NCBI GenBank assembly: GCA_964473155.1
Contig: CAYYNT010000001.1
Coordinates: forward strand, 6,017 to 70,016
Source: an uncultured Gemmatimonadales bacterium
Lineage (GTDB): Bacteria; Gemmatimonadota; Glassbacteria; GWA2-58-10
Length of the DNA stretch: 64,000 nucleotides
Reading direction: 5' to 3'
The notes below the pieces were generated by a model that was given only the letters and a program-made list of their open reading frames with translations, did no database searches and was not told the DNA's origin. This document shows, one piece after another, positions 6,446 through 54,498 of the stretch. The translations under genes were made by a program, and so were the position numbers. Within the stretch, counting starts at the first letter, position 1. Every line of letters starts with the position of its first letter.

Positions 6446-6585
6446 CCGGCGGTGGTGAACCGCGCTGAAAGCGCTATAAAAATAATCGCCAAATGCCTTT
6501 CTGACAAGATTTATCTGGATTCTTCGATTTACTGCCGGACAGGCTTTTCGGCTGACAGACAGAATCGTCTATCGAGATACAATAT

Positions 6586-6630
6586 CCCCCAAAAAAGCCC
6601 GCCGCACCCCTGAGAGGGAGCGGCGGGCCT
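6586..6630 (-). terminator. Rho-independent terminator of the cohesin/dockerin gene
   Basis: On the minus strand, GCCCGCCGCtccctctcaggggtGCGGCGGGC forms a hairpin followed by TTTTTTGGGGG. Confidence 0.7.
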
Positions 6631-6652
6631 GAGAAAAACCGATTGAACCGGC

Positions 6653-11671: not shown

Positions 11672-14600
11672 CGGAGACCGGCGGCACGGGATTGACCGTC
11701 CGGCCGCCGCTGCGCCGCGGACTGCGGGTCAAACCGTTCGAGCCTTTCGGCCACCACTGTCACCACGCCGTACTCCTCGTTCACCCGTCCGCTGACCAGA
11801 AACGGCCCCGGCCCCAGGGCCAGCGCGCCGCATTTCCTGTAACAGCGGGGAAAAATCACCACCTCGAACGCTGCGGCCGGGTCATCCAGCGACAGAAACA
11901 TCATCGCGCCGCTGTCCGTGCGAATGCGCTTGCAGGCAATCGGACGGCCGAGCACGCGGACTGTCCGGCCCGCGTGGGCGCGCAGTTCTCCGGCTCGCAC
12001 GATACCCGGTAAGGGCGGGAACTGACCGCCAAGGGACAGCGGGTGCTCGCTGACCGTGAACCCGAAAATCTCATTCTCCAGCCGCAGACGTTCCCGGCGC
12101 GGGTACTCGGGAAGGCGCGGAACGACGCGCCGGACTGTCTCCAGGCTGTCGCCGCCCAGGGGCAGGCCGCCGCTGGAGCCGGCGGCGGCCTTGAGATGCC
12201 CGCGCTCGTAAAGAAGCTCCAGCCGCCAGAGAAGTTCCGGGCGGGTCAGCTCGAAACTGTCGAAAGCCCCGCATCGCACCAGGGTCTGCACCTCGGAGAA
12301 CCCCGGCTCGACCCGCCGGCAGTAGTCGGCCAGCGAGGTGTAGAAACCCTCGCGCCTTCGTTCGCTCACCGTGCGCTCCATGGTCCCCCGGCTCAGGCCG
12401 GCCACCACGCTCAACCCCACCCGCACGCTGCCCGATGAGCCTGTATAATCGATGCCGCTGCGGTTGACATCCGGCGGGAGGATTGACAGCCCCATGCGAC
12501 GCGCCTCCTCGATATAGGCCGAGGGGCCGTAGAACCCGCCGCCGTTGGACAGCACCGCGGCCATGAACTCGGCAGGGTAATGCACCTTGAGGAAAGCGCT
12601 CTGAAAGGAAATCCGGGCGTAGGAGGCGCTGTGCGCCTTGCAGAAAGCGTATCCGGCGAAACTGCGTATCTGCCGCCAGATCTCAGCCGCCACTGTCCGC
12701 TCCACGCCCCGTCCGGCCGCCGCCTCGATGAACTGCCGCTCCAGCGCCTCCATCGCCTCGCGCGAGCGCATCTTTCCGCTCATGGCGCGGCGCAGAAGGT
12801 CGGCCTGGCCCAGGCTCATCCCGGCGATGGCGTGCGCCACCCGGATCACGTCCTCCTGGTACACCATCACGCCGTAGGTTTCGCCCAGCAGCTCGCGCAG
12901 CTTCGGATGCAGGTATTCCACCGGGGCGCGCCCGCGGTGACGGTCCACGTACTGGGCCAGCATGCCGCTCTCGGCCACGCCGGGACGGATAACCGAGCTG
13001 GCCGCGGTCAATTCCTCGAACGTGCGCACGCGCAGCTTTTCCAGCAACTGGCGCATGGCCGGGCTTTCGATATAGAAACAGCCCATGGTGCGCCCGCGGG
13101 AGATCAGCCGCACCACCTCCGAGTCGGCGGCCAGGCGGTCGATGTCTTCCAGGTCCAGGCGATGGCCCGTGCGCGCCTCTACCTGACGGGCCACTTCCTC
13201 GTTCACCGAAAGGGCGCGCTGCGACAGAAGGTCGATCTTGACCAGTCCCAGTTCCTCGATCGGGAACATGTCGTACTGCGTGACCACGAACCCCTTGGCC
13301 GAGCGGGCCAGGGGCACGAGGTCGGTGAGCGGGAAAGGCGACACCACTATCCCCCCCGCGTGCATCGAGAGGTGGCGCGGAAAACCCGCCAGCCGCCGGG
13401 CCTGTGCGACCACCGTGCGCCAGGGTTCCTCGTCCAGCGGGAGGCTGCGGGTCTCGGGCCACTTGCGCGCCAGTTCCTCCGGCCCGGTCAGCGTGCGCCC
13501 GGGCATGATCCGGGTGAACCTGCCGATCTCGCCCGGCGGAAGGCCCATCGCCCTGGCGATCTCGCGGAAGGCCAGCCGGGCGCTGAAAGTGACATAGGTG
13601 CAGATCATGGCCACGCGGTCGGCGCCGTAGGTGCGGTACACGTATTCCAGCACCTCGTCACGCCGCCGCCAGGAAAAATCGAGGTCAATGTCCGGCGGAG
13701 AGTGGCGCTCCGGGTTCAGGAAGCGCTCGAAAAACAGGTTGTAGCGGATCGGGTCGACATCCGTGATGCCAAGTGCGTAAGCCACCAGGCTGTTGGCCGC
13801 AGAGCCGCGCCCAACCATGGGGATACGACGCCGCCGGGCGAAACGGGCGATGTCGGCCACCACCAGGAAATAGGGGCTGAAACCCTGGCGGTCGATAACT
13901 TCCAGCTCGTGGCGCAGACGTTCCAGCACGCGGGAGTTGAGTGGACGGTAGCGGCGGCAGGCCCCACGGAAAGCGCTCTTGAGCAGCAGCGAGTAGGCGC
14001 TCTCCCCGTCAGGCAGACGGAATTCCGGGAAAATCATCCCTCCGCCGGGCAGTTCCACCCGGCACTCGGAGGCCAGCCGGGCGGTGTTGGCCAGCGCCCC
14101 GGGCCAGGCGGCCAGACGCTGCTCCATCTCGGCGGCCGAAGCAAGAAATGCTCCAGCCGGAGCGCACTCGTCATTTCTCAGCGAACCGGTGGCGCGCCCC
14201 AGGTCCATGGCGCGCAGAAGGCAGTGCAGACCGTGGTCCTCCGGCCGCGCGAAAAACACCCCGCCCGTGGCCGCCAGAGGGACTGAAAGCTCCGCGGCGA
14301 GAGCCGCGGTATTCCTGAGCCGCGCCGCTGCCCCCTCGGCCCCGTCATGGCACAGTTCGGCGTACAGCATGCCAGCGGGAAGGGCCGAGGCCAGTTCGCG
14401 CAGAAGGCCGCTGTCGGCGCTCAGCACGAAAAAGCTTTCCGCCGCTCGCACCGCCTCGGCAGTCAGGGCCGCGGGCAGCGAAAAATCTCGCTCCAGGCGG
14501 CGTGCCGTGACCAGACGGCTCACCGCGGCGAACCCTTCGCGGTCGCGGGCCAGTACAAGCGCATCCGCTCCGGGAGCGCCACGTTCGAGCGAGGTGGTCA

Positions 14601-14799
14601 GCACCGCGCCGAACAGCGGGCGGATTCCCCGCTCTCGCGCTTTGCGTTGGAAAGGCACCGCGGCGAAAAGCCCGTTGGTGTCGGTCAGGGCCAGGCTGTC
14701 CATGCCGTGGGCCTGCGCCGCATCCAGCAATTCATCCAGGGTGGAGCCGCCGGACAGCAGCGAGAAATTGCTGTGACATCTGAGGTGCGTGAAAGCCAC
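11662..14799 (-). CDS. dnaE2: Error-prone DNA polymerase, DnaE2/ImuC-like (C-family polymerase alpha subunit with PHP domain)
   Basis: 1045 aa. N-terminal PHP domain (HLRCHSNFSLLSGGSTLDEL), polymerase core and a C-terminal OB-like region. The length and N-terminus fit DnaE2 better than replicative DnaE. lexA and dinB lie 4-5 kb away. Confidence 0.7.
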   Translation of the reverse strand: MAFTHLRCHSNFSLLSGGSTLDELLDAAQAHGMDSLALTDTNGLFAAVPFQRKARERGIRPLFGAVLTTSLERGAPGADALVLARDREGFAAVSRLVTARRLERDFSLPAALTAEAVRAAESFFVLSADSGLLRELASALPAGMLYAELCHDGAEGAAARLRNTAALAAELSVPLAATGGVFFARPEDHGLHCLLRAMDLGRATGSLRNDECAPAGAFLASAAEMEQRLAAWPGALANTARLASECRVELPGGGMIFPEFRLPDGESAYSLLLKSAFRGACRRYRPLNSRVLERLRHELEVIDRQGFSPYFLVVADIARFARRRRIPMVGRGSAANSLVAYALGITDVDPIRYNLFFERFLNPERHSPPDIDLDFSWRRRDEVLEYVYRTYGADRVAMICTYVTFSARLAFREIARAMGLPPGEIGRFTRIMPGRTLTGPEELARKWPETRSLPLDEEPWRTVVAQARRLAGFPRHLSMHAGGIVVSPFPLTDLVPLARSAKGFVVTQYDMFPIEELGLVKIDLLSQRALSVNEEVARQVEARTGHRLDLEDIDRLAADSEVVRLISRGRTMGCFYIESPAMRQLLEKLRVRTFEELTAASSVIRPGVAESGMLAQYVDRHRGRAPVEYLHPKLRELLGETYGVMVYQEDVIRVAHAIAGMSLGQADLLRRAMSGKMRSREAMEALERQFIEAAAGRGVERTVAAEIWRQIRSFAGYAFCKAHSASYARISFQSAFLKVHYPAEFMAAVLSNGGGFYGPSAYIEEARRMGLSILPPDVNRSGIDYTGSSGSVRVGLSVVAGLSRGTMERTVSERRREGFYTSLADYCRRVEPGFSEVQTLVRCGAFDSFELTRPELLWRLELLYERGHLKAAAGSSGGLPLGGDSLETVRRVVPRLPEYPRRERLRLENEIFGFTVSEHPLSLGGQFPPLPGIVRAGELRAHAGRTVRVLGRPIACKRIRTDSGAMMFLSLDDPAAAFEVVIFPRCYRKCGALALGPGPFLVSGRVNEEYGVVTVVAERLERFDPQSAAQRRPDGQSRAAGLRQA

Positions 14800-14899
14800 G
14801 GCTTCCGTCCCTTCCGGGGGATGCGCCCCCCGCCTGCCCGGCGCTGCCCGAAAGCTCGGTCCGTCTCACCCGCCGCCGGGCGTATGTCCGGCGCCGGCG

Positions 14900-15835
14900 T
14901 CACTTTCTGAAGTGACTGTCCAGGAAGGTCCTGAGCGCCAGGGTGGTCGGCTCGAAATAAGGCTGAAAACTCATCCAGGTGTGGCCCGCGCCTTTTTCGG
15001 TGTACAGTTCGGCCTCCACCCCGGCGGCTTTCAGCGCCGCGATAAAGCGCTCTGTCTGGGCGTACGGCACGGTCTTGTCCTGGTCCCCGTGCAACAGCAG
15101 CATGGGCGGGTCGGTCTTGTCCAGCCAGGTGGCGGGCGTGGCCAGACGGTACTGTTCCGGGACCTCGGCGCTGCTTCCGCCCAGGAACTTCCGGACCGAC
15201 TCGCCCTCGAAACCGATCAGCTCGCTGGCCGGGTTGAACGCCGCCACAAGCTGCACCCGGCTCGAATATTCGTTCCAGCCGCCGTTGCCCTCCAGTTCCG
15301 CCGCGCCGCCGCTCGCCCCCAGAAGAAGCGCCAGGTGCCCTCCGGCCGATTCCCCGCTGGCCGCGATGCGCTCCGGGTCGACATGGTATTCTTTCGCCCC
15401 CACGGCCCGCAACCAGCGCACCGCGCACTTGCAGTCCTCGATGGCGGCCGGGAAGCGCGCCTCGCCAGAAAGGCGATAATCGATGCAGACGCAGACATAA
15501 CCATTGGCCGCCAGGTACATCGCCTGGCGCGAGAACTGGCCCGGATGCCCGGCGCGCCAGCCGCCGCCGTGAATGAACACCACCGCGGGGAAAGGCCCCT
15601 CGCCCCGCTCGGGCTGGTAGAGGTCCAGGCGGAGCTCCCGGCCGCCTGCGTTGCCGTAGACCAGGCCCTCCTCCATGTAGGCGGCCTGCCCCAGGGCCTT
15701 GAGGAAATCGTCCGGGAACGCGTCCCGGCTGAAAGAAAAGATCAGAAGCAGAACGGTGGCTGCTGTCGCCCCTTTTTTCATCTCTCCTCCGGTAAGAGCG
15801 GAACTGGAACCCTGCATGAACGCCGCGGCAGTCAT
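14900..15835 (-). CDS. Secreted alpha/beta-hydrolase esterase/lipase (HGGGW oxyanion motif, GESAGG nucleophile elbow)
   Basis: 311 aa with a signal peptide. Motifs VVFIHGGGW and SGESAGGHLA are present. Tandem paralogue of the next gene. Confidence 0.8.
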   Translation of the reverse strand: MTAAAFMQGSSSALTGGEMKKGATAATVLLLIFSFSRDAFPDDFLKALGQAAYMEEGLVYGNAGGRELRLDLYQPERGEGPFPAVVFIHGGGWRAGHPGQFSRQAMYLAANGYVCVCIDYRLSGEARFPAAIEDCKCAVRWLRAVGAKEYHVDPERIAASGESAGGHLALLLGASGGAAELEGNGGWNEYSSRVQLVAAFNPASELIGFEGESVRKFLGGSSAEVPEQYRLATPATWLDKTDPPMLLLHGDQDKTVPYAQTERFIAALKAAGVEAELYTEKGAGHTWMSFQPYFEPTTLALRTFLDSHFRK

Positions 15836-16710
15836 TTGAAATGCCGGTCCAGGAAACGGGCCAGAGTCTCGGCCGTGGGCGTGAAATAAGGCATCTGGCT
15901 GTACCAGGTGTGCCCGGCGCCCTTTTCGGTGTAAAGCTCGGCCTCAACTCCGGCGGCCCTGAGCGCCTCGACAAAGCGCTGCGCCTGTACATACGGCACT
16001 ATCGTGTCCGCGTCACCGTGCAGAAGCAGCATGGGCGGATCGGACCTGTCCAGCCAGGTGGCCGGGGTGGCCATGCGGTACTGGTCCGGGACCTGGGCGC
16101 GGGTCCCCCCCAGGAACGCCAGGATCGATTCGTTCTCATACCCCGCGAACTCGCAGGCCGGGTTGAACGCCGCCACAAGCTGCACCCGGCTCGAATACTC
16201 GCTCCAGCCGCCGCTGCCCTCCAGCTCCGCAACGCCGCCGCTCGCGCCGGTCAGAAGAGCCAGGTGCCCGCCGGCGGAACTCCCGGAAACCGCTATCCGC
16301 TCCGGATCGACACGGTAATTTTTCGTTCCCACGGCCCGCATCCAGCGCACCGCGCACTTGCAGTCCTCAATGGCGGCGGGGAAACTCGCCTCGCCGGAAA
16401 GACGGTACTCGATGCAGGCGCAGACATAGCCGCGGGTGGCCAGGTACATGGCCTGGCGCGAGAGCTGCCCCCGCTGGCCGGAACGCCAGCCCCCGCCGTG
16501 GATGAACACCACCGCCGGGTAAGGGCCGCCACCGCCCGAGGGGCGATAGAGGTCCAGCCGCAGCTCTCTCCCGCCGCCGACACCGTAAACCACTCCGGAT
16601 TCCATGGAAGCGGCTTTGCCCAGGGTGTCCAGAAAATCATCCGGCAAGGCGCGTCCGGATACGACAAAAACCAGCGCGAGGACAGTCAGAGTAACGGCCC
16701 TGAATTTCAT
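15832..16710 (-). CDS. Secreted alpha/beta-hydrolase esterase/lipase, tandem paralogue
   Basis: 292 aa with a signal peptide. Roughly 80% identical to 14900..15835 across the core. Motifs HGGGW and GSSAGGHLA are present. Confidence 0.8.
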   Translation of the reverse strand: MKFRAVTLTVLALVFVVSGRALPDDFLDTLGKAASMESGVVYGVGGGRELRLDLYRPSGGGGPYPAVVFIHGGGWRSGQRGQLSRQAMYLATRGYVCACIEYRLSGEASFPAAIEDCKCAVRWMRAVGTKNYRVDPERIAVSGSSAGGHLALLTGASGGVAELEGSGGWSEYSSRVQLVAAFNPACEFAGYENESILAFLGGTRAQVPDQYRMATPATWLDRSDPPMLLLHGDADTIVPYVQAQRFVEALRAAGVEAELYTEKGAGHTWYSQMPYFTPTAETLARFLDRHFK

Positions 16711-16795
16711 GGTCCCTCCATAGTCACCGGATTACCGCCAGCCCGGCTTGCGCCGGGAAAATACCGCATCCGGATGAATATTACGTCCGTCACCC

Positions 16796-16845
16796 CGCGA
16801 AAGCACGTTTTATCTTCCGCGCGGCGCGGAGAAAACCGGCCGCTT
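16796..16845 (-). promoter_or_regulatory. Conserved promoter/operator module, copy 1 (upstream of the esterase pair)
   Basis: AAAGCACGTTTTATCTTCCGC...GAGAAAACCGGCCGC. About 50 nt similar to 17475..17525. Sits 86-135 nt upstream of the esterase start. Confidence 0.4.
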
Positions 16846-16876
16846 TCGCACTGGCGCCCGCCTCCCGCCTCTCCGC

Positions 16877-17401
16877 TCAGGCGCCCCAGAGGTGCATGGT
16901 GTTGACCGGCTGTCCCTGAAGCTTCAGATAGTAGAACAACTGCGCCTTGTGCAGGTTCAGATGATGCACCATCTGCAGAAAACGGTGGCCCAGCACCATC
17001 TCGTGCTCATCCCAGGGCGCCTTGGCAATCTGTGTTGAAAGCTGCTCCTCGCTGCATTTGTCCAGTGTTCTGAACGCGGTGACTTTGTCCTCAGCCAGCT
17101 TGGCTTTCGCCTCTTTCACGCTGCCGACCGCGGGCAGTTTTTCCGCGGGGGGCAACATCTCCTCGGGCGGGATACTGGCCGGGTCCATGCCCTCGGGCAG
17201 CCCCCAGTCACCGGTGGCGAAACCGTGCATCCCGGCCCCGCAGCCGTTGGTCAGGTGCATCAGCAGTTGTCCCGTGGTCATCCAGTTGTTTTCCTTAGAG
17301 GGTTTCCAGTCCAGGCTGCCGCCCTCCGCCAGATCCATCAGTCCCTCGGTGGTGCTGTAGGCGCCATCCAGCTCGATCCTGAGCATTTCTTTCCACTGCA
17401 T
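16877..17401 (-). CDS. DinB_2/DUF664-family (DinB/YfiT-like four-helix bundle) protein
   Basis: The internal start MQWKEM was checked at 17401. The C-terminus reads HRFLQMVHHLNLHKAQLFYYLKLQG. The damage-inducible DinB-like metal-binding His pattern is present. Confidence 0.6.
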   Translation of the reverse strand: MQWKEMLRIELDGAYSTTEGLMDLAEGGSLDWKPSKENNWMTTGQLLMHLTNGCGAGMHGFATGDWGLPEGMDPASIPPEEMLPPAEKLPAVGSVKEAKAKLAEDKVTAFRTLDKCSEEQLSTQIAKAPWDEHEMVLGHRFLQMVHHLNLHKAQLFYYLKLQGQPVNTMHLWGA

Positions 17402-17474
17402 AAGTTCCCCCTTCCTTACCACGATTGTGATTGGTCCATCCCCCGGAACCGCACAATCATTTCCGGGGCTTACA

Positions 17475-17525
17475 AAAGCACGTTCTATTTTCCGCCGGGG
17501 TAAGGCGAAAACTGGTCGGCCACGG
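17475..17525 (-). promoter_or_regulatory. Conserved promoter/operator module, copy 2 (upstream of the DinB_2-family gene)
   Basis: AAAGCACGTTCTATTTTCCGCC...GCGAAAACTGGTCGGC. Overlaps the last codons of the upstream SnoaL-like gene. Confidence 0.4.
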
Positions 17526-17895
17526 CCCACCAGCGGCCGCCCTCGCGCGCCAGGACAAACATGTCCCGCCCGGCTGACTCCACTGTCCGCCCGTCATGGG
17601 TCTCCCAGCTCATATCATAATAATACGTGATCACCGCCACGCTTCCCCCGCCCCAGAGCTGCACTTTTTCGCCATGCGTGCGCCAGGATTTGATACTGAC
17701 CGCTCCGGCGAACCCGCTCCAGCCCTGGATGCATGCCGCGGCGCCCTCGCGCCGTTCCCGGTCCGCCGGCGTTATCGCCACCATCTCCGGGTGGAAAAAC
17801 CGGGCCAGGCGTTCCGGGGCGCGCTCCACGGTCCAGGCACGGTTCAGCGCCTCCAGGGTTTCCAGGGCTTCCGCCTCCAGCCGTCTGCGATCCAT
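17485..17895 (-). CDS. SnoaL-like/NTF2-fold (DUF4440-like) protein
   Basis: Likely starts at the internal MDRRRLEAEALETLEALNRAW. This is an NTF2-like fold signature (..LNRAW.......FFHPE). Confidence 0.5.
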   Translation of the reverse strand: MDRRRLEAEALETLEALNRAWTVERAPERLARFFHPEMVAITPADRERREGAAACIQGWSGFAGAVSIKSWRTHGEKVQLWGGGSVAVITYYYDMSWETHDGRTVESAGRDMFVLAREGGRWWAVADQFSPYPGGK

Positions 17896-18034
17896 GCTCA
17901 CACCGTCTCCTTTCGGTCCGCCGGGAAATCCCGGCCCGGCGAAGGCCGCGAGTGTAAATAGTCTGTGCACACCCAGTACATCCATGCGTGCTTCCCTTTC
18001 CGGTTATGCCCCGCCCCAGGGGCCGCCGGGAACC

Positions 18035-19243
18035 TCACCCGGCGCGCCGGGCCTGGCCCGTGTCTCGTCCCTTGCGCACGGCCTCGAAACCGTACTTGTC
18101 ACGCAGATCGTCCACCGCGCGGTAGAACCGCATCCGCCGCAGAAGGTCCGGACGGAACAGGTCAAGCTGGCCCTCCTGTGGCCGCATTTTCGACAGGCTT
18201 ATCCCGAGCAGGCGCACACGTACGCGCCGCTCCAGCAGCGGAAGCATCAGTTCCAGGGCGCGCTCGAAAATCTCCTGGTCTGCGCTGGTCCCGGCGCAGC
18301 CGGACCAGGCCCGCGTGACTGTCTTGAAATCGGCGTAGCGCAGACGCAGGGTGACCGTGCGGCCCAGCAGGTCCAGCGCCCGCGCGCGCCGCCCGACCTT
18401 CTCGGCCAGGCGGTAAAGCACTCCCTCCAGGAAACGCCGGTCCACCGTGTCCTGGCTGAACGTGACCGAATGCCCGACCGACTTGGGCGGCCCGCTTTCC
18501 GTCTCCACGCTCAATCCTCCGCGGGCGCGCGCCATGTCGTACAGCCATTGCCCGGCGCTGCCGAACACCCGCGCCAGCAAATCCGCGTCAAGCTCGCGCA
18601 ACTCGGCCACGGTATGAAGGCCCATGCGGGCCAGGTGCTCACGCAGGTGCGGCCCTACCCCCGGCACGTCCCCCAGCGGCAGCGAGGCCATGAAATCCTG
18701 CTCGTGCCCCGGCAGGACCCGCAGCAGCCCCGAGGGCTTGGCCTTCTTCGAGGCTATCTTTGCCAGCAGCCTGTTGCCGGCGATCCCGGCCGAGACATCG
18801 ATATGGAAAGTTTCCCTTATCTGGCGGATGATCCGGTCCACTGTCTCCAGCACCGGGCCGTAACAGCGGTCGAAACCGGTCAGGTCGAGATAGGCCTCGT
18901 CGATCGAGGCGGCCTCGACCAGGGGGGTCCAGGAGCGCAGTATCTCGCGGATGCCGCGCGAGACCCGCGCGTACAGATGGTGGTTGCCCGGCAGGAAAAC
19001 GGCCTGCGGACAGAGACGCCGCGCCTGCGCCGCGGGCATGGCCGAAAAGACCCCATACTGCCGGGCCTCGTAGGAGGCCGCGGCCACCACCCCGCGAGTC
19101 CCATCCACCGCGCCGACCACCACCGGACGGCCCAGAAGGGAACTGTCACGGGCGCGCTCCACGGAGACGAAAAAAGCATCCATGTCGATATGCACGATAT
19201 TGCGGTCCACGCCAGTCGCTCCGAATAAACCCGGTCCGGACAA
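18035..19243 (-). CDS. dinB: DNA polymerase IV (Y-family translesion polymerase)
   Basis: 402 aa. Catalytic motifs are intact (HIDMDAFFVSVE and SIDEAYLD). The little-finger domain is present. Confidence 0.9.
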   Translation of the reverse strand: MSGPGLFGATGVDRNIVHIDMDAFFVSVERARDSSLLGRPVVVGAVDGTRGVVAAASYEARQYGVFSAMPAAQARRLCPQAVFLPGNHHLYARVSRGIREILRSWTPLVEAASIDEAYLDLTGFDRCYGPVLETVDRIIRQIRETFHIDVSAGIAGNRLLAKIASKKAKPSGLLRVLPGHEQDFMASLPLGDVPGVGPHLREHLARMGLHTVAELRELDADLLARVFGSAGQWLYDMARARGGLSVETESGPPKSVGHSVTFSQDTVDRRFLEGVLYRLAEKVGRRARALDLLGRTVTLRLRYADFKTVTRAWSGCAGTSADQEIFERALELMLPLLERRVRVRLLGISLSKMRPQEGQLDLFRPDLLRRMRFYRAVDDLRDKYGFEAVRKGRDTGQARRAG

Positions 19244-19311
19244 ACCGGCCGGACATCCGCGAGAGTGCGGGCGCCCGGCCGGACATTACAAGGCAGCCGC
19301 CGGAGAATCCT

Positions 19312-19545
19312 TCAGGGACGGGCCACGGCGGGCGTGAACATACGGAACGCGCGGCGGCAGCGCGAGGCGAGGCCGCTGTCCCGCTCCGTCTGAGACTCCG
19401 CGAAACGCTGATCCAGCACCACCAGCATGCACCGCTCGGAACGCCCCTTGCGAATCACGCCGAACGCCATCAACCGGTTGCCTTTCATCCTCTCCTCCTC
19501 GCTCTGCGCCGGGACGCCGTCCCGGCCGGGTTGTACATCTGTCAC
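19312..19545 (-). CDS. Small hypothetical protein between lexA and dinB (GTG start)
   Basis: 77 aa. Position fits a lexA-orf-dinB operon. No recognisable motif. Confidence 0.3.
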   Translation of the reverse strand: MTDVQPGRDGVPAQSEEERMKGNRLMAFGVIRKGRSERCMLVVLDQRFAESQTERDSGLASRCRRAFRMFTPAVARP

Positions 19546-19562
19546 GTGTCTATCTGAAATTT

Positions 19563-20186
19563 TCAGTATTTGCGGAGCACGCCGATCACCACGCCCTGAA
19601 GGCTGAACTCGCCATCGCGCACGAAGATCGGCGACATGTTGACATTGGCAGGCTGAAGACGCACCCCGTCCTTCTCGCGGTAAAAACGCTTCAGCGTGAC
19701 CTCCTCGGCGCCGATCAGGGCCACCACTATCTGACCGTCGCTGGCGTCCTGACGGTTCTCCACGATCACGTAGTCCCCGTCGCGTATCTGCTCGTCGATC
19801 ATCGAGTCGCCGCAGACACGTAGCACATAGGTCCTGCCCTTACCGGCCAGGAACGACGGCACATCCATGCTTTCGGGCGTGGGCAGCGCCTGTATCGGCC
19901 GCCCGGCGGCGATCCGGCCGAGAAGCGGCAGCGTCACCGCTCCGGCCTCGCTGACCGTGTCTGTTTCGCTCTCGTGCGCCCCACACAACTCTATCGCGCG
20001 GCTGCGGTTAGAGTCGCGGCGGATCAGCCCCTTCTCCTCCAGGTTCTGAAGGTGCTTGTGCACAGTGGCCGGGGAGTTCAGGCCGAAACGGCGGCCGATC
20101 TCCCCCAGGCTGGGCGCGTAGCCGCGGGCGGAGATATGTTCGCTGATGAAATCCAGTATCTCTTTCTGTCTGCGAGTCAGGTACAT
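19563..20186 (-). CDS. lexA: LexA repressor (S24 peptidase)
   Basis: 207 aa. N-terminal winged HTH (LTRRQKEILDFI). Ala-Gly cleavage site (AAGRP). Catalytic Ser/Lys region (CGDSM...K). Confidence 0.92.
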   Translation of the reverse strand: MYLTRRQKEILDFISEHISARGYAPSLGEIGRRFGLNSPATVHKHLQNLEEKGLIRRDSNRSRAIELCGAHESETDTVSEAGAVTLPLLGRIAAGRPIQALPTPESMDVPSFLAGKGRTYVLRVCGDSMIDEQIRDGDYVIVENRQDASDGQIVVALIGAEEVTLKRFYREKDGVRLQPANVNMSPIFVRDGEFSLQGVVIGVLRKY

Positions 20187-23794: not shown

Positions 23795-24061
23795 AATAAT
23801 GGCTGCGGGGCTGTCTCGAAAGTAGAGGCGGCCCCATGTGGCCGCCCGGGCGCAACCGCGGGTGTTCTGGATAACCTTGGCAAGGAGGTAAAAAGACGCT
23901 TGTGGAACTATAGTTGCGTTTTCAGGTGCGCCCGAACCAGATAACAATTTTGCAGAAACGAGCATCATTTTTAATAATCGCCAAATTTGCCTTGTGCAGC
24001 GTCTCCTTCTGGAGAATATGAAAAAACTTTTCGGGTTCACAGCCGGGAGCCGGGTCAAAAT

Positions 24062-24403
24062 ATGCAAATACTGGAAGCTGCCATAACTGTTGATGAGCTA
24101 AGAAAAATCGCCGAAGCCACTTTTGGGGATATTGTTAAAGCGGTGGTTGATACTGACCGGCAATTGATCGCTCTCGACGCAGAGCTTCATTCAGATCTGG
24201 AGGCCATGCTGCTGGGAAATGGTTCAGAACAAAACAGCCTTTGGGGAATAAATTTATATCCAGATTTGACAGATGAGGATTTTATCGAGTTTGACTCACT
24301 GATCAATATTCGCCCGTCTCAGGGCAACAAAACAAGAAGTGTGGACTCAAAAGACATTCAGAAAAAAATCCGGACCATTGTCAACAGATGGATAAGACAT
24401 TGA
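24062..24403 (+). CDS. Small conserved hypothetical protein (DUF5674-like)
   Basis: 113 aa (MQILEAAITVDELRKIAEATFGDIVKAVVD...). Lies in a low-GC patch. The stop overlaps the next gene by 16 nt. Confidence 0.45.
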   Translation: MQILEAAITVDELRKIAEATFGDIVKAVVDTDRQLIALDAELHSDLEAMLLGNGSEQNSLWGINLYPDLTDEDFIEFDSLINIRPSQGNKTRSVDSKDIQKKIRTIVNRWIRH

Positions 24404-24732
24404 ACACTCAGCATAAAGAACTGGCTATGGGACGCTGGGAGAAATTGTCCTTTTGCGAACAGATGGCCAATGTGGGGAGTGAAGTAAGCCGCGCGTTCAA
24501 CTGGCGTAAAAAAGGCAAGGACACTCTTGCGGAAAACGCCGTCAACCGGGCCCTCGAACTGCTGGATCTCACGATCGGGACGGTCAGGCAGCCTTCCCGT
24601 CTGAAAGAACTGTTGAGAGCCAGGGAATGTCTGGTAGATTATTTTTACGGTTCCAATGAATATCTTTCTTCCGAACAACTGTTGCGTAGGTATTTCGACA
24701 TCTTTGCCTTCGCACTAAGGAGAAAAACTTAG
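24388..24732 (+). CDS. Hypothetical all-alpha protein (possibly MazG-like NTP pyrophosphohydrolase fold)
   Basis: 114 aa. Acidic helices CEQMANVGSEVSRAF / ENAVNRALELLDLT. Overlaps the preceding gene. Confidence 0.35.
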   Translation: MDKTLNTQHKELAMGRWEKLSFCEQMANVGSEVSRAFNWRKKGKDTLAENAVNRALELLDLTIGTVRQPSRLKELLRARECLVDYFYGSNEYLSSEQLLRRYFDIFAFALRRKT

Positions 24733-26559: not shown

Positions 26560-27843
26560 TCACAGGACATCCATGATCCGGATCAGGTGCACCGGCGCGA
26601 GGACCACCGGTTCCTTGTCAATCTGTTTCACCGCTTCAGTGACGGCGCCCATGGCCGTCCGGTGGGTGATTATCACCAGAGGCACGCCGTGACGGGGATC
26701 ATTTTCCGATTCCTTCTGCACCACCGAGGCGATCGAGATTCCATGCCCGGCCAGGGTCGCGCTGATCCGGGCGAACACGCCCGGCTGGTCCTTGACGTTC
26801 ACCCGAAGGTAGAACCGCCCGGAAACCTCCTCGCGGGCCAGCACCGGAAGGTCGGAACGCATTTCGTTGTAGCTGGTGCGTATCCTGCGGTCCTCGGAAA
26901 GGCTGAACAGATCGCTGATCACCGCACCGGCAGTGGGCATCATCCCCGCCCCCTTGCCGATATAGGTATGTTCATGGTGCGCCCATGAATTGACCATGAT
27001 CGCGTTGAACTCGTTGCGCACCTGGGCCATGATCGACTCGGCCGGAATGAGCGTCGGGCCGACCCACACCGCCAGGCGCCCGTCCTCCCGGCTGGCGCGG
27101 GCCAGGAGCTTTATCCTGAATCCCATCTCGCCCGCCGCCTGGACATCCACGTTGCTCACGCCGGTGATTCCCTGCAGGTCGATGCTCTCGGGCAGCACGC
27201 GCGTGCGGAACGCCTTGCGCACGAGGATCGAAAGTTTCTGCGCCGTATCCATACCGCTGATATCGAGCGTCGGGTCCGCCTCGGCGAAGCCTTTCTTCTG
27301 GGCCTCCACCACCGCCTGCTTGCAGGTGAGACCGGGATTTTGTTCCATGCGGGTCAGGATGTAGTTGCAGGTGCCGTTGAGAATGGCGCTGATCGAGAGT
27401 ATCTCATCCGCCACCAGTTCCTCGCGCAGGACCTTGATTATCGGCACGCCGCCGGCCACGCTGGCCTCGAACAGAAGGCGCGCGCCGCTGGCCGCCGCTA
27501 TCTCGGCAAGCTCATCGCCGTAATGCGACATCAGATACTTGTTCGCCGTAATCACATCCTTGCCCGCAGCCAGCGCGGTCTCGACCAGGGTCTTGGCCGC
27601 GCCTATCCCGCCGATCAGCTCTATGATCACGTCTATCTCGGGATCCTTGACCACCGATTCGGCATCACGGGTAAGCAGGACCGGATCGCAGGGCACCTCG
27701 CGCGGGCGCTCAAGGTCCAGGTCCGCCACTTTGACCAACTCAACCCGTTTGCATATCTCGAGATCGCCGCGGGTGAGCATCCGGATCACTCCGGAGCCTA
27801 TCGTCCCATAGCCCAGCAGCCCCACTCTAAGCTTTTTCGACAT
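26560..27843 (-). CDS. hom: Homoserine dehydrogenase with C-terminal ACT domain
   Basis: 427 aa. N-terminal LRVGLLGYGTIGSGV. C-terminal ACT domain (FYLRVNVKDQPGVFARISATLAGHGISI). Confidence 0.9.
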   Translation of the reverse strand: MSKKLRVGLLGYGTIGSGVIRMLTRGDLEICKRVELVKVADLDLERPREVPCDPVLLTRDAESVVKDPEIDVIIELIGGIGAAKTLVETALAAGKDVITANKYLMSHYGDELAEIAAASGARLLFEASVAGGVPIIKVLREELVADEILSISAILNGTCNYILTRMEQNPGLTCKQAVVEAQKKGFAEADPTLDISGMDTAQKLSILVRKAFRTRVLPESIDLQGITGVSNVDVQAAGEMGFRIKLLARASREDGRLAVWVGPTLIPAESIMAQVRNEFNAIMVNSWAHHEHTYIGKGAGMMPTAGAVISDLFSLSEDRRIRTSYNEMRSDLPVLAREEVSGRFYLRVNVKDQPGVFARISATLAGHGISIASVVQKESENDPRHGVPLVIITHRTAMGAVTEAVKQIDKEPVVLAPVHLIRIMDVL

Positions 27844-27931
27844 CTATCCTCCACCTTGAACAACCCTGTCCGCCACTCAAAAATAGATACACACTTTATT
27901 TTGATATAGTTATCGAGTTGAGACTGTATAT

Positions 27932-28336
27932 TTATTGCTCAGTTATTACTTTAAGACCGCTGATGTTCACAAAATCTTTAGCATTGTGTGTTACTATCGG
28001 CACTCCATGTCGAACAGCACACGCGGCAATCCACGCATCATGGAACGAGATCGGCAAACCTTGGCGCTGTCGTTCTACAACTATTTTGCCAAAAGTCTTT
28101 GCAATTTCATGATCATACGGGACAACAACATAATTACGAATCGCGTTTTCTAGCATTTTCCGTTTTTCCATGCCCCAATTTCTATTCTCTGCACCATAGT
28201 ACAATTCGCCTACAGTCACAAAAGATACAGCTACAAGACGGTTATCAATATGTTTTACATACGCCTTTGCTTCTTTTGTTCCTTTCATAATATAACTAAC
28301 CACATTTGTATCAACCATTACTTTTGTGGCAGCCAT
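27932..28336 (-). CDS. PIN-domain ribonuclease (VapC-like toxin)
   Basis: 134 aa. Has the PIN acidic tetrad context (MVDTNVV..., ...E..., HDAWIAACAV). The gene is AT-rich (about 40% GC). Its start lies 6 nt after the stop of the upstream 325-aa gene. Confidence 0.8.
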   Translation of the reverse strand: MAATKVMVDTNVVSYIMKGTKEAKAYVKHIDNRLVAVSFVTVGELYYGAENRNWGMEKRKMLENAIRNYVVVPYDHEIAKTFGKIVVERQRQGLPISFHDAWIAACAVRHGVPIVTHNAKDFVNISGLKVITEQ

Positions 28337-28342
28337 ATATCG

Positions 28343-29320
28343 TTACCTCACTATACTTTGTTGGCGTAGTTCGTGGATTGATTCCTCGAAACCATCGTCA
28401 ACCTCGCCGGGCCAAGAATTAAAGAGCGACTCTATATTAGACAATGGTGTCACTCCTTGAGCAAAAGCTAACTCATCCATGCTCAAAGAGGTCCAAAAAT
28501 TAGATGGCAAAGGTTTCCCCGAAGGAAGCAAATCGACGGCGACTTCATTCTTATCATCTAACTTCTTAATGTCTCTTATTTTAATGCTGGTGATTCTGCC
28601 TGATAAAGGATCTTCTATAGCTTCTCCAATGATTCTTACAAACTTAGTTATATCATCCAGAACCTCCTCCTTCTGCTCTTCATCAAAAAGACAAATAACT
28701 GGTTCGCCTACAGAAGGATGTATTCTACATCTCGTGCCGTGTTCTTTGAAATCGGCCATCAGTAACCGCCCTTCTATTGTGCGAGTATTAACCGATGGAC
28801 CTTTAATGCGGTTTTGAATATTTTGGTATCCTATACAATCGATCTTTGTAGAAATAGGAATATCTCGATGATTCAGTGTTATTTCAATTTGATTCACATC
28901 GTCCTCAAGCAATACTCCTAAGTCTCTCCAAGCCATTAAAACACCAGTATCAAATCCATGCGGCATACTGCTTCCAGAACCCTGAACTTCATTCAAGCCA
29001 TTTATTGAATACTCTATTGTAGACAATCCAATATCCAATTCTGGAAAATTGGGTTGACTCTGTTTCCTGTCAAAACCAAGAACTGTTGAAGGGCTTCCAT
29101 GTGTTAACTGGACCAATTCCAATGACAATTCTTCTTTAAGACGCTTCCCCTTGGAACCCTTACGTGTACTATCCGTTTCGCCTTGAAGAACTTGCCCACA
29201 TCTTAAAAAAGCCTTGTTAAGGCTCTCAAGCAATCTCAGTAGATGAGAAACACCAATTCTACCTGATCCAATTGCCTTTCCCTCAAGTTTTACGGAAATA
29301 AGCGGTTTAGAGGTATTCAT
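28343..29320 (-). CDS. Unknown 325-aa protein encoded immediately upstream of the PIN toxin gene (candidate atypical antitoxin/partner)
   Basis: AT-rich ORF with no recognisable catalytic or NTP-binding motif. The C-terminal tail WPGEVDDGFEESIHELRQ resembles the acidic/aromatic tails of some PIN-associated antitoxins (recalled from memory). Translationally coupled to the PIN gene. Confidence 0.45.
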   Translation of the reverse strand: MNTSKPLISVKLEGKAIGSGRIGVSHLLRLLESLNKAFLRCGQVLQGETDSTRKGSKGKRLKEELSLELVQLTHGSPSTVLGFDRKQSQPNFPELDIGLSTIEYSINGLNEVQGSGSSMPHGFDTGVLMAWRDLGVLLEDDVNQIEITLNHRDIPISTKIDCIGYQNIQNRIKGPSVNTRTIEGRLLMADFKEHGTRCRIHPSVGEPVICLFDEEQKEEVLDDITKFVRIIGEAIEDPLSGRITSIKIRDIKKLDDKNEVAVDLLPSGKPLPSNFWTSLSMDELAFAQGVTPLSNIESLFNSWPGEVDDGFEESIHELRQQSIVR

Positions 29321-29354
29321 AATTCACCTCCCTTCAAACAGGTTTCGACTGATG

Positions 29355-30167
29355 CTATTTACCCAGCTCGCGCGAGCGCTCGGCAGCGGCCAGCACCGCG
29401 CTGATTACGGCGTCCCTGAAACTTTTGGCCTCCAGCACGTGCAGCCCGGCCGCGGTTGTGCCGCCGGGCGTGGTGACTGCATCGCGCAACGCCGCCGGAT
29501 GTACATTCTCATCCGCCGCCAGCATGGCGGCCGCTCCATGAAGGGTCTGCACGGCCAGGCGTCGCGCCGCGGGATGCGGGATTCCGGCTTTCACTCCGCC
29601 CGCGATCAGGGCCTCGGCGAACATGAACACCCACGCCGGGCCGCTTCCGGACAGGCCTGTCACCGCATCCAGAAGGCTCTCCGGCAGCTCGACCGCCGCA
29701 CCCGCCGCGCCCAGGATTCTGCCAGCCGCAGCCATATGCTCCGGCCGGGCGAAACGCCCCCCGGCATACGCTGTAGCCGACTGTCCGAGCGTGGCCGCTA
29801 TATTGGGCATCGCGCGCACCACCGGTGTGCGGTCAGGGACCTCCGCCTCGATACGGGCCAGGGTCACCCCGGCCGCAATCGAGATCACAAGCTTACCCGG
29901 CCCGAGCGAGTCTTTCATCTGCCCGAGCACCCCGGACACCAGGTGCGGCTTGACGCAGACCAGTATCACCCCGCAGCGAGCGGACAGTTCAGAGAGTTCG
30001 GCCGGCTTCACGCCGAGACGGCTTTCCAGGCTGGCCAGACGGGCCTTGTCCGTTTCCGCCACCCAGGCCGCGGACGGAGTAAACAATCCAGCCTTCAGCA
30101 CTCCCTCAAGAAGCGCGCCGCCCATCTTGCCCGCACCGGCAAAGCCGATACCGGTGATGTTATCCAT
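29355..30167 (-). CDS. proC: Pyrroline-5-carboxylate reductase
   Basis: 270 aa. N-terminal IGFAGAGKMGGAL Rossmann motif, and the ProC C-terminal dimerisation region. Confidence 0.88.
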   Translation of the reverse strand: MDNITGIGFAGAGKMGGALLEGVLKAGLFTPSAAWVAETDKARLASLESRLGVKPAELSELSARCGVILVCVKPHLVSGVLGQMKDSLGPGKLVISIAAGVTLARIEAEVPDRTPVVRAMPNIAATLGQSATAYAGGRFARPEHMAAAGRILGAAGAAVELPESLLDAVTGLSGSGPAWVFMFAEALIAGGVKAGIPHPAARRLAVQTLHGAAAMLAADENVHPAALRDAVTTPGGTTAAGLHVLEAKSFRDAVISAVLAAAERSRELGK

Positions 30168-48117: not shown

Positions 48118-48194
<77 letters not shown>

Positions 48195-48199
48195 TTTTG

Positions 48200-48258
48200 T
48201 AAAAAGGGATCTCGCCGCTTTAGTGATATAGAGCGGAAAGGTCCCTTTTGTTTTTATT
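48200..48258 (+). terminator. Rho-independent terminator after tRNA-Met
   Basis: AAAGGGAtctcgCCGCTtt...AGCGGaaaggTCCCTTT long hairpin followed by TGTTTTTATTT. Confidence 0.7.
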
Positions 48259-48483
48259 TCAGACCTGTTTATGGAAATCCGGCAGTTGTATGAAATAAAG
48301 CGGCAGGTGTGCGTTTTCGCACTCTTATTTTTGATTTTTTTAAGCACCCGTTCAAGCTTCTTCTCGATTTGCCGATATTTAATGCAGTTATGGAATTGTT
48401 CCAGAATGGTACAATTCTTGTAATAGTAAAGGCGTTTGGCAATTTCATACTCAGAACGCTATCACCTTTGGATGGTGTTGACA

Positions 48484-48816
48484 ATGGGAAAATCCAGGAT
48501 TAAAACCAGGACTTCTTATTTCGTGGTTACACCGGAGGGAAAGCTGAAAAAGCTCAACCCTCTGCTTCTGGGGACAATTCTTGTGTTCCTGCTGATCTCC
48601 GGGGTGATAGTTTCCGACCGATGCTATGTACTCAATCGGCAGCTTATTGCCGAACGGGTGGAAATCAGCTCCGGTTTGCTCAAAATGAATTCTGAACGCA
48701 GCAAACTGGGCAGCGCGCTGCAAATATGCGAAGAAAAAATGACCAAGATCAACGATCTGCTTTCTTTCGACACGGACAAGGAAAACAAGGCACAGGCAGG
48801 TAAAGCAGATGAATAA
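48484..48816 (+). CDS. Hypothetical membrane-anchored coiled-coil protein (possible EnvC/FtsX-associated partner)
   Basis: Internal start MGKSRIKTR... One TM helix (LLLGTILVFLLISGVIV) then a coiled coil. Overlaps the start of the M23 peptidase gene. Confidence 0.4.
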   Translation: MGKSRIKTRTSYFVVTPEGKLKKLNPLLLGTILVFLLISGVIVSDRCYVLNRQLIAERVEISSGLLKMNSERSKLGSALQICEEKMTKINDLLSFDTDKENKAQAGKADE

Positions 48817-49753
48817 CAAAAAGATGACATTGATGATTTTCTATCCCGATGGAGGCTCCAGAACCATCCCGTTCAATTTATCCGCTCTGTTAAAAGGTTC
48901 GGCAGCATTGATAGCTGCGTTTATTGCCGCCATTCTGATCCTGACCGGCTACAACGCCTACAGTCTCTTCTCGGTGAAAAAGCAATATGCCAGTTCCTCC
49001 GAGAGCCTCACCTCCGAAAAAAGAACCGTTTGCGAAAGGCTGAAAAAACTCGAGGATTTCGAGGAAAAGATATCTTACTATCTGGGAGGAGCGCTCACTG
49101 ATAAGGAAGGGGTCACTGTCGCCCTGGATCAGAATAATTACTCCGGCGGTCTTGGCAGTGGCGATGATACTGAATTCGACAGCGTGGGTATGGTCGAAAT
49201 TCCGCCGGCTCCGGTCATCCCGGAGAGCCAGGAGGAGGAAAAAACGGGCCTCCCGGACAGCTTCAATATCGATCTGCGCGTTGAAATGCTTCGTGACCGT
49301 CTGACTGAACTGGCTGTCCTGGCCGTCAAGGAGAAAACCCGTCTCGACCTTTCTCCTTCTATTTCACCCTCAACCGGCTATATAACGAGCTATTACGGCT
49401 GGCGCCGTTCCCCGTTCACCGGCCGCCGAGACATGCACCGCGGAATCGACATAGTCAACCGCATAGGCACTCCGGTCAAAGCCACGGCAAACGGTACAAT
49501 TTCTTTCGCCGGCAAGGAAGTTTTCTGGGGTAATGCTGTTTTTATCGAGCACAGGGACGGGATCGTATCAAAATACGGGCACATGAGTTCACTCAACGTA
49601 AAAGAGGGTGACCATGTAACCCGCGGCCAGGTGATCGGGTTCATCGGCATGACCGGCCGGACCACCGGCCCGCACGTGCATTACCAGATCGAGATCAATG
49701 GAAATCCGATCAATCCGATGCAGTTCATCATCGATGAGTCGGATATAAACTGA
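48809..49753 (+). CDS. M23 family metallopeptidase (LytM domain) with N-terminal TM and coiled coil
   Basis: 314 aa. LytM motifs HRGIDIV...G.PV.A...G and GHMS...V..G..V..G..IGF.G.TG.TTGPHVHYQI (HxxxD / HxH). Confidence 0.85.
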   Translation: MNNKKMTLMIFYPDGGSRTIPFNLSALLKGSAALIAAFIAAILILTGYNAYSLFSVKKQYASSSESLTSEKRTVCERLKKLEDFEEKISYYLGGALTDKEGVTVALDQNNYSGGLGSGDDTEFDSVGMVEIPPAPVIPESQEEEKTGLPDSFNIDLRVEMLRDRLTELAVLAVKEKTRLDLSPSISPSTGYITSYYGWRRSPFTGRRDMHRGIDIVNRIGTPVKATANGTISFAGKEVFWGNAVFIEHRDGIVSKYGHMSSLNVKEGDHVTRGQVIGFIGMTGRTTGPHVHYQIEINGNPINPMQFIIDESDIN

Positions 49754-53622: not shown

Positions 53623-53768
53623 GATTGTACCTCTTCTTCCAAATCATCTTCCCCAAGTCCCAATATATCATTCTCGTGTTCTTTCAAAACATCTCTACCG
53701 AGTTTTTTATACTCATTGTACGTCTTTATGCTTGTATAGTGTCGTTCTATTTCTAACGCTTTTGCCAT
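53619..53768 (-). CDS. Small 50-aa ORF overlapping the MTase start codon (ATGA overlap); possible regulatory peptide
   Basis: MAKALEIERHYTSIKTYNEYKKLGRDVLKEHENDILGLGEDDLEEEVQS. No HTH recognisable. Occupies the R-M intergenic position where controller genes often sit. Confidence 0.25.
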   Translation of the reverse strand: MAKALEIERHYTSIKTYNEYKKLGRDVLKEHENDILGLGEDDLEEEVQS

Positions 53769-53801
53769 GTCTGTAGTTAGATAATGCCTCCAATAATCAT
53801 C

Positions 53802-54473: not shown

Positions 54474-54498
54474 AATATATACCCTTGTTTTGTATTTC

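Follow-up and report, generated by a model that had tools for sequence, protein, structure and literature searches.

The VapC toxins of Shigella and Salmonella, which belong to VapBC toxin–antitoxin (TA) modules, are compact tRNases that are active without partners in characterised systems. PrrC and RloC are latent tRNA-directed nucleases that sit in restriction–modification (R-M) operons, are restrained by a protein partner and form a second line if restriction fails, and in systems of the CapRel(SJ46) type a toxin is kept silent by its own C terminus or by a partner and is freed on direct binding of a phage-derived ligand. Here we analyse a two-gene cassette that invites comparison with each of these arrangements and that lies in a 64,000-nucleotide (nt) stretch of contig CAYYNT010000001.1 from an uncultured Gemmatimonadales bacterium (GenBank assembly GCA_964473155.1). 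We call the whole stretch the window, the upstream open reading frame (ORF) of 325 amino acids (aa) gene A, and the downstream ORF of 134 aa PIN. With moderate confidence, we favour reading the pair as a horizontally acquired VapBC-like TA module with a large antitoxin, in which the tail of A would neutralise PIN, a body containing an oligonucleotide/oligosaccharide-binding (OB) fold would bind a ligand, and the module would serve a back-up or stabilising role in R-M operons.

Three published observations bear on this proposal. Genes for PIN TA systems have been found associated with type I R-M operons, which was read as mutual stabilisation (PMC5499597); PDC-M32 and PDC-M63, each consisting of two genes, were described from prophages as candidates for phage defence (PMC12429752); and DUF6575 appears in a list of domains with a newly recognised link to phage defence (PMC9519451). 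The PIN toxin, the logic of a TA pair and the linkage of PIN genes to R-M are already known. New here are the long antitoxin architecture (a novel domain, an OB fold and a VapB-like tail), the series of short and long antitoxins to which it belongs, and the size and strict linkage of an unnamed PIN-linked family.

Results

A foreign cassette between proC and hom

An earlier reading of this DNA from the sequence alone had described a fall in guanine-plus-cytosine (GC) content from about 63% to about 40% over some 1.5 kb, placed between hom and proC in a co-linear run of biosynthesis genes and containing two minus-strand genes 6 nt apart. Each element of that description was borne out. In 300-nt windows, GC was 0.57–0.66 up to position 27899, 0.37–0.41 over 27900–29249 and 0.58–0.71 from 29250; in 1-kb bins, the GC of 0.406 at 28001–29000 was among the deepest troughs in the window, where the norm is ~0.55–0.68. 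Domain matches identified the flanking genes as hom and proC (Table 1); genes for a PALP enzyme and glutamate dehydrogenase continue the run in the same direction. Six nucleotides separate the stop codon of A from the ATG of PIN, and the motifs quoted in the sequence-only reading (DTNVV, HDAWIAA and the tail WPGEVDDGFEESIHELRQ) are all present in the ORF translations.

Three contigs of close relatives (L172, L173 and L174) encode a Hom at least 90% identical to that of the window and keep the order ArgJ–aminotransferase–PALP–proC–hom–glutamate dehydrogenase, with a proC–hom gap of ~157 nt and no island. Because proC and hom are adjacent in these relatives, the ~1.48-kb segment is an insertion of foreign DNA. 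When the window was aligned to the empty site (L172 and L174), homology stopped at proC ...GAGCTGGG and restarted ~35 nt before the hom ATG. The foreign DNA took the place of the spacer and of the terminal proC codons, which end in ELGK in the window and in ELGRTN in the relatives, each followed by the stop codon. The cassette edges showed no target-site duplication, terminal inverted repeat, tRNA gene, integrase gene or terminator, and the only repeats there were short and attributable to chance.

Gene A starts 34 nt from the proC stop codon, behind a Shine–Dalgarno-like sequence (Table 1). We found no convincing promoter upstream of A inside the cassette and likewise no terminator; together with the 34-nt gap, this makes read-through from proC the likely source of cassette transcription. 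Across 70 loci, the GC content of the module stayed at 0.43–0.62 independently of host GC, as would be expected for a horizontally moving cassette, and the window copy had the largest mismatch between module and host of the copies examined (0.40 vs 0.60). The identical A–PIN pair was recovered from several independent samples.

The PIN protein

The downstream gene had been called a canonical PIN domain, and a match to PF01850 (E = 1.3e-16) confirms this. Its closest relatives in the PDB are tRNA(fMet)-specific VapC proteins, namely Shigella VapC (3tnd, E = 2.4e-13) and also 5ecd. PIN residues D9, E44, D100 and D121 align to D7, E42, D98 and E119 of Shigella VapC (3tnd), and an incomplete acidic tetrad, which would have counted against the sequence-only reading, is not what the alignment indicates. 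Judged by alignment, the acidic set is all present and is conserved: D9, E44 and D100 are invariant in 59/59 intact orthologous A–PIN pairs, whose residue at position 121 varies (D in 49, H in 9 and E in 1). The NCBIfam models for tRNA(fMet) VapC (NF047863 and NF010285) scored the protein under their cut-offs (82.2 vs 140 bits and 58 vs 143, respectively). By its sequence, PIN is related to the tRNA(fMet) VapC clade and is not a member of it.

A large unnamed family strictly linked to PIN

Gene A of the window had no family match in Pfam, NCBIfam or PADLOC, and its family has no name in Pfam, NCBIfam or the literature. A PDB sequence search with the A profile returned a chance match alone (3p42, E = 0.46). 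The sequence-only reading had found the 325-aa protein unrecognisable, which holds for the three family collections and fails for the fold, since A is predicted to contain an OB fold of the SSB/RPA type (see below). Homology to a housekeeping family, which would have undone the proposal of a TA or defence module, was not found: no link to any such family emerged.

The family is large. A word-indexed search yielded 653 homologues, the best 120 of which are all full length (324–343 aa, 52–61% identity), and an exhaustive profile search yielded 865 clusters at 50% identity (E <= 1e-3), mostly of ~300–335 aa. Our reference set comprised 79 A loci in species-representative genomes, nearly all of them metagenome-assembled genomes (MAGs), and the family comes almost wholly from uncultured bacteria of at least a dozen phyla. 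Hosts include Planctomycetota, Desulfobacterota, Nitrospirota, Acidobacteriota and Alpha-, Beta- and Gammaproteobacteria, as well as Verrucomicrobiota, Spirochaetota, Hydrogenedentota, Latescibacterota and Sumerlaeota, among others. An A fragment (L086, 3270–3602) was also seen on a short, low-coverage contig binned as a Candidatus Thorarchaeota archaeon, reflecting either misbinning or a rare archaeal copy.

At the reference loci, every intact A with room for a downstream gene has a PIN of the same clade directly 3' of it, with a single exception (L074), and these PINs match the window PIN with phmmer E values of 1e-46 to 1e-61. The two reading frames share 4 nt (ATGA) in most of ~65 other loci. 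The order A-then-PIN is kept in metagenome contexts too, and A relatives with only 29% and 22% identity to the window protein also have PIN next to them, so that the synteny on which the sequence-only reading depended extends from the reference loci to metagenomes and remote relatives. Among the 59 intact pairs, mean pairwise identity is 0.63 for A and 0.67 for PIN, and the divergences of the two proteins correlate (r = 0.80). These comparisons indicate strict co-inheritance of A and PIN.

One-sided decay of the pair

Where only one gene of the pair is damaged, comparison of the loci shows that it is PIN. At seven loci (L012, L032, L033, L048, L050, L051 and L074), PIN is frameshifted, truncated, nonsense-mutated or missing beside an intact A, and no reference-genome locus has a disrupted A beside an intact PIN. 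Both genes are disrupted at L062, L076, L079, L085 and perhaps L078. With A presenting a 2.4-fold larger target than PIN, chance would place seven of seven losses in PIN with a probability of ~0.29^7 = 2e-4. Such one-sided decay is comparative evidence for a putatively dangerous PIN and a protective A.

At one of the doubly disrupted loci (L076, 4437–6759, a Paracoccaceae MAG), A is split by an insertion of ~1.35 kb into pieces covering residues 1–71 (4437–4649) and 69–319 (6001–6759), and the downstream PIN is truncated.

A portable antitoxin-like tail

The sequence-only reading had suggested that the acidic and aromatic C-terminal tail of A could plug PIN, with the remaining protein as a sensor or effector. 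In a diversity set of 86 aligned A sequences (also used for AlphaFold2, conservation and hidden Markov model scans), residues F275, L284, Q288 and W303 in and near the tail are at least 90% conserved. A profile of residues 272–325 retrieved 423 proteins, and the top 120 of these are 43–112 aa long, have no Pfam domain and share the motif ELAAEQGVxP...LlGDFWPEDEsvDeFi..vRqWRReG. The ORF of one such stand-alone tail protein of 73 aa (P0294) overlaps by 1 nt the start of a PIN gene whose 134-aa product shares 36% identity with the window PIN (E = 4e-30). A metagenome scan with a narrower tail alignment gave 80 motif-bearing loci, 68 of them evaluable, and a PIN of the window clade stands directly 3' of the tail ORF in 46 of the 68. 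Tail-bearing ORFs fall into two size classes, one short and one of ~315–358 aa.

The Pfam model VAPB_antitox was weakly matched by 7/86 full-length members and 5/40 isolated tails, the best E value of 7.5e-4 being below threshold. The simplest reading of these patterns is that the tail may be what binds the toxin in a lineage of VapB-like antitoxins, and that the A family has joined it to a body of ~270 aa. Stand-alone tail proteins thereby lend independent support to the suggested role of the tail.

Members of the stand-alone tail family (58–112 aa, unannotated and mostly encoded immediately 5' of PIN genes) are P0270–P0389, with loci L087 and L092–L171. For two of the proteins (P0336 and P0374), the JGI label reads 'phage terminase small subunit', probably a misannotation. 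Four related loci (L093–L096) carry a 150-aa tail ORF (2222–2674) with no PIN downstream, and at another (L089, 3001–4984) the ORF of a 112-aa tail protein runs into an overlapping gene of 98 aa that belongs to no family, with a Fic gene after it. These five loci hint that the tail module may pair with other toxins.

Predicted architecture of A

The AlphaFold2 model of A (pLDDT 86.3, five models in agreement) divides the protein into four parts (Table 1). In the N-terminal domain, strands (E) and helices (H) follow one another as E8–14, H24–45, H59–64, E67–85, H97–113, H125–140, E142–160 and H162–173, and no PDB structure matched over this domain. Residues 176–255 have the five-stranded barrel topology of an OB fold in the predicted structure, a linker follows, and residues 281–324 of the tail are modelled as three short helices. 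The predicted OB fold is of the SSB/RPA type. No RHH (ribbon–helix–helix), AbrB/SpoVT, Phd/YefM or helix–turn–helix (HTH) domain was found in the window A with Pfam and NCBIfam models, nor across the 86 members at E <= 1, the lone HTH-type hits being chance matches in one member each (HTH_AsnC-type, 0.036; HTH_32, 0.29).

The OB domain is the best-conserved part of A, with a column conservation of 0.865 compared with ~0.70 elsewhere, and its signature motif (Table 1) is near-invariant. All 86 diverse members share G184, C210 and G232, and conservation reaches at least 90% at D190, F191 and R199; conserved basic and aromatic residues of the OB loops are D190, F191, K/R192, R/K197 and R199. A zinc site formed by H194, C198, H201 and C210 was considered and dropped as a conserved four-ligand site: C210 occurs in 86/86 family members, C198 in 67/86 and H201 in 61/86 (nt ~28691–28729), but H194, which distant members do not conserve, in 17/86. 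Neither the window protein nor any of the 86 members matched an SSB or tRNA_anti model of Pfam.

Over its whole length, A matched only three structures, all uncharacterised phage or prophage proteins of 270–381 aa (BFVD, searched with Foldseek): Q6NE06 of Leptospira phage LE1, A0A8S5T657 from Myoviridae and A0A8S5QA00 from Siphoviridae, the last annotated as DUF6575. The matches span 277–301 aligned columns with E = 6e-10 to 3e-9 and TM-scores of only 0.31–0.42. Membership of A in DUF6575 was rejected, the Pfam model matching 0/86 members at E <= 1, and we keep this domain as a structural lead alone. If the modelled resemblance is real, phages may encode look-alikes of the A body, as decoys or as the source of the fold.

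Two PADLOC models matched diverse relatives of A: PDC-M32A in 28/86 (best E = 1.2e-11) and PDC-M63B in 14/86. The matches are collinear with the N-domain and OB body of A, and at the level of sequence they amount to a remote superfamily link, not membership.

Genomic company and restriction–modification

R-M families were the commonest among 139 immediate neighbours of the module (ResIII 7, N6_N4_Mtase 6, HSDR_N 3, SWI2_SNF2 3, Methylase_S 2 and RE_endonuc 2), with AAA_15/AAA_21 ATPases and Fic also present. Its positions at individual loci are between mod and res of a type III system (L075), behind an HsdM–HsdS fusion (L019), beside HsdR (L051 and L052), between an HTH–SNF2 helicase and an N6_N4 methyltransferase–PDDEXK–ResIII set (L004), or after a helicase of that same type (L041). 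Using R-M proteins of individual loci as seeds, we found a type I/III R-M or SNF2 homologue within 6 kb at 22 of the 69 loci that offer at least 6 kb of sequence. Gene neighbourhoods thus point to an association of the module with R-M operons.

Most A–PIN loci have housekeeping surroundings (SMC, MetH and proC/hom, for example), and the window copy, flanked by proC and hom, has no R-M genes adjacent. An upstream neighbour was called at 72 loci, and 14 of these (14/45 of those on the same strand) have A starting no more than 60 nt from a co-directional upstream gene; given these short gaps, the module often lacks a promoter region of its own.

Other features of the window

A second low-GC island (0.36–0.47) at 52702–54578 on the minus strand holds a type II R-M cassette and is probably another recent foreign insert (Table 1). 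A low-GC patch (0.47) just past glutamate dehydrogenase, at 23987–24732 on the plus strand, contains two overlapping small ORFs, and this site varies among the close relatives: L172 and L173 carry a different gene of 123 aa there and L174 carries none. The stretch from the tRNA-Met gene through the M23 peptidase gene (48118–49753) may be a tRNA-adjacent island. GC is raised to 0.63–0.69 over ~8 kb at 12000–20000, compared with a window average of ~0.58.

Table 1 Positions of the cassette, its genes and domains, and further features of the window
Feature	Position	Strand	Remarks
Inserted low-GC cassette	27880..29360	none	~1.48 kb, absent from close relatives
hom	26560-27843		Homoserine_dh + ACT; flank of cassette
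proC	29355-30167		P5CR; other flank of cassette
Gene A, putative long antitoxin / PIN partner	28343..29320	-	325 aa
Shine–Dalgarno-like GGGAGGTG	29325..29332	-	4 nt upstream of A start codon; read from sequence
A residues 1-175, alpha/beta N-domain without recognisable fold match	28796..29320	-	pLDDT mostly 83-98
A residues 176-255, predicted OB-fold domain	28556..28795	-	motif IEGRLLMADFKEHGTRCRxHP; b1-b2-b3-alpha-b4-b5 barrel
A residues 256-280, probably flexible linker	28481..28555	-	pLDDT 51-61, <50 at 266-272
A residues 281-325, helical acidic/aromatic tail, putative PIN-binding segment	28346..28480	-	ELAxxQGVxP...WPGExDDGFE...LR
GAGG ribosome-binding site for PIN gene	28346..28349	-	within last A codons (translational coupling)
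VapC-type PIN nuclease, putative toxin	27932..28336	-	134 aa, PF01850
DUF5674 protein and ORF without family	within 23987-24732	+	138 aa, E = 1e-37; 114 aa
tRNA-Met (CAT)	48118-48194		
M23 peptidase	48809-49753		low-GC (0.45) stretch after tRNA-Met, with 126-aa ORF without known family
D12-class N6-adenine DNA methyltransferase	within 52702-54578	-	306 aa, PF02086, E = 4e-40
EcoRV-family restriction endonuclease	within 52702-54578	-	258 aa, PF09233, E = 2e-90

Discussion

The sequence-only reading had put the pair forward as a candidate atypical TA or anti-phage defence module, and our data support that proposal: homology, synteny and the acidic set, the points examined on which it might have failed, all came out in its favour. 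We infer toxicity of PIN, neutralisation by the tail, ligand sensing, a tRNA target and phage defence from the comparisons above, and they can be assembled into the following model. PIN would be a VapC-type, Mg2+-dependent endoribonuclease whose nearest characterised relatives cut initiator tRNA. A would be made just ahead of PIN from the same transcript and would keep it inactive through its C-terminal helical, acidic and aromatic tail (residues ~275–325). The body of A, comprising the alpha/beta domain and the predicted OB fold, could bind single-stranded DNA (ssDNA), RNA or another conserved ligand, and ligand binding or cleavage of the linker could be coupled to the release or retention of PIN, making A a 'sensor antitoxin'. 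In R-M operons, the most likely role of such a module would be that of a back-up abortive-infection or locus-stabilising element. The window copy is a recent insert that stands alone, and read-through from proC probably provides its transcript.

Several observations weigh against this model. Two thirds of the loci, that of the window included, are not beside R-M genes, and neither A (at E <= 1) nor PIN of the window has any PADLOC match. PDC-M63AB, the only tested one among the candidates to which A is remotely linked, did not protect the E. coli host from which it comes (bioRxiv 10.1101/2024.12.20.629700). Since PIN falls below the equivalog cut-offs, specificity for tRNA(fMet) cannot be assumed. 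Three of the seven PIN losses are frameshifts and could be assembly errors; modularity is the one line of evidence that suggests contact between tail and PIN; and OB folds can mediate protein–protein contacts as well. A is about as conserved as PIN, which is atypical for an antitoxin and fits an obligate functional partner just as well. Searched by tblastn with A as the query, 72,556 plasmids and 50,697 phage genomes gave no match, and these collections therefore offer no evidence for a plasmid- or phage-borne origin.

In the most novel of the readings, A–PIN would constitute a new R-M-coupled class of abortive infection, with the A body sensing an infection-specific nucleic acid (phage ssDNA replication or recombination intermediates, DNA ends cut or left uncut by type I/III enzymes, or phage RNA) and freeing a VapC-type tRNase so that translation stops. 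We consider this rather unlikely; were it true, the A body, with its PDC-M32A/M63B-like relatives and phage look-alikes, would be a general nucleic-acid sensor serving various effectors and possibly mimicked by phages. About as doubtful, in our judgement, is a selfish addiction module with no part in phage defence, in which A would be a long VapB whose OB fold autoregulates through its own mRNA or operator, and the R-M link would reflect only the tendency of TA cassettes to gather in mobile islands and stabilise them. The order and overlap of the genes, the modularity of the tail and the asymmetry of decay are all of the TA type and agree with it, as do the earlier reading of PIN TA genes at type I R-M operons as a case of mutual stabilisation (PMC5499597), the housekeeping surroundings of most loci and the inactivity of PDC-M63AB in defence. 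It accounts poorly, however, for the position of A within 60 nt of the upstream gene at 14/72 loci (34 nt in the window), which leaves no room for an operator or promoter, and for a two-domain body of 270 aa with 86% column conservation in its OB part, which far exceeds the needs of autoregulation when tail-only antitoxins of 60–75 aa exist for that PIN clade.

The equal conservation and tight co-evolution of A and PIN would also suit a two-subunit nuclease rather than a TA pair, with A recognising ssDNA, RNA or the anticodon loop of a tRNA and holding the catalytic PIN by its tail. Activity would then belong to the complex, which might, for instance, be an accessory nuclease acting alongside R-M on invading nucleic acid, and the likeness of the OB fold to those of SSB, RPA and the anticodon-binding domains of aminoacyl-tRNA synthetases (aaRS), the lack of a DNA-binding repressor domain in A and the embedding of the module between mod and res all lean the same way. 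We nonetheless hold a two-subunit nuclease to be quite improbable. Stand-alone tails of 60–110 aa with no substrate-binding domain, encoded 5' of the same PIN clade, fit an inhibitor better than a specificity subunit; PIN is lost with A kept and never the reverse, whereas a non-toxic enzyme should lose the larger A more often; and PIN is compact and of VapC type, from the tRNase clade, whose characterised representatives are active without partners. Highly improbable, finally, is that the cassette in the window genome is an inert, recently acquired passenger with no host function. Its GC mismatch is the largest of the copies, it has no promoter or mobility genes of its own, and relatives live without it; yet both ORFs are intact with all conserved residues and good ribosome-binding sites in a co-directional, operon-like string, the identical pair recurs in several independent samples, and expression is probable.

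Our analysis provides a first structural and contextual annotation for a large unnamed family of 325-aa proteins. If the sensor-antitoxin model is true, the module is a VapBC variant in which the DNA-binding domain has been swapped for a conserved OB-fold body, and the short and long forms of one antitoxin lineage represent a natural experiment in the gain of a sensor domain. Recurrence between mod and res or beside hsd genes suggests a back-up defence resembling that of PrrC and assembled from unrelated components. The small 'GDFWPEDE' proteins would be an unrecognised antitoxin family, some members of which are mislabelled as terminase small subunits.

Comparison with known systems

Any likeness to CapRel(SJ46) would be conceptual, offered as a hypothesis only, as there is no homology and the toxin chemistry differs. 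Resemblance to PrrC and RloC, which occupy type I R-M (hsd) loci, lies in placement: in a subset of loci, A–PIN sits between mod and res or beside hsdM, hsdS or hsdR. The parts are not homologous: PrrC joins an ABC-ATPase and a nuclease in one protein, lacks both PIN and OB fold, and is masked by the R-M enzyme itself; neither A nor PIN contains an ATPase or PrrC domain by Pfam and NCBIfam.

PDC-M32 and PDC-M63, related to A through gene A of the former and gene B of the latter, are unvalidated two-gene candidates whose corresponding protein is ~375 aa long. PIN was considered as the partner gene of PDC-M32 and dropped: the window PIN and two other PINs of the family match no PADLOC model, and the partner gene therefore differs from those of PDC-M32 and PDC-M63. 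The predicted OB fold of A resembles those of SSB, PriB and RPA and of the anticodon-binding domains of class IIb aaRS at 7–19% identity and, unlike in SSB-like proteins, sits in a larger protein with an antitoxin-like tail.

VapBC remains the nearest relative, the closest set being the tRNA(fMet)-cleaving VapC proteins of Shigella, Salmonella, Leptospira and nontypeable Haemophilus influenzae (PDB 3tnd, 5ecd and 6nkl). A–PIN departs from it in the length of A (325 aa vs 70–90 aa), in the novel N-domain and predicted OB fold that replace the DNA-binding domain, in the conservation of A at the level of its PIN and in a PIN that scores below the NCBIfam equivalog cut-offs for VapC. Like VapBC, it combines a compact PIN of ~134 aa bearing a D-E-D-D/E acidic set with a translationally coupled partner gene directly upstream; its C-terminal A segment resembles the small free-standing antitoxins of the same PIN clade and, weakly, VAPB_antitox; and its decay is one-sided, as expected of a toxin and its antitoxin. 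The A–PIN pair is plausibly a new long-antitoxin variant of VapBC and an R-M-linked defence candidate.

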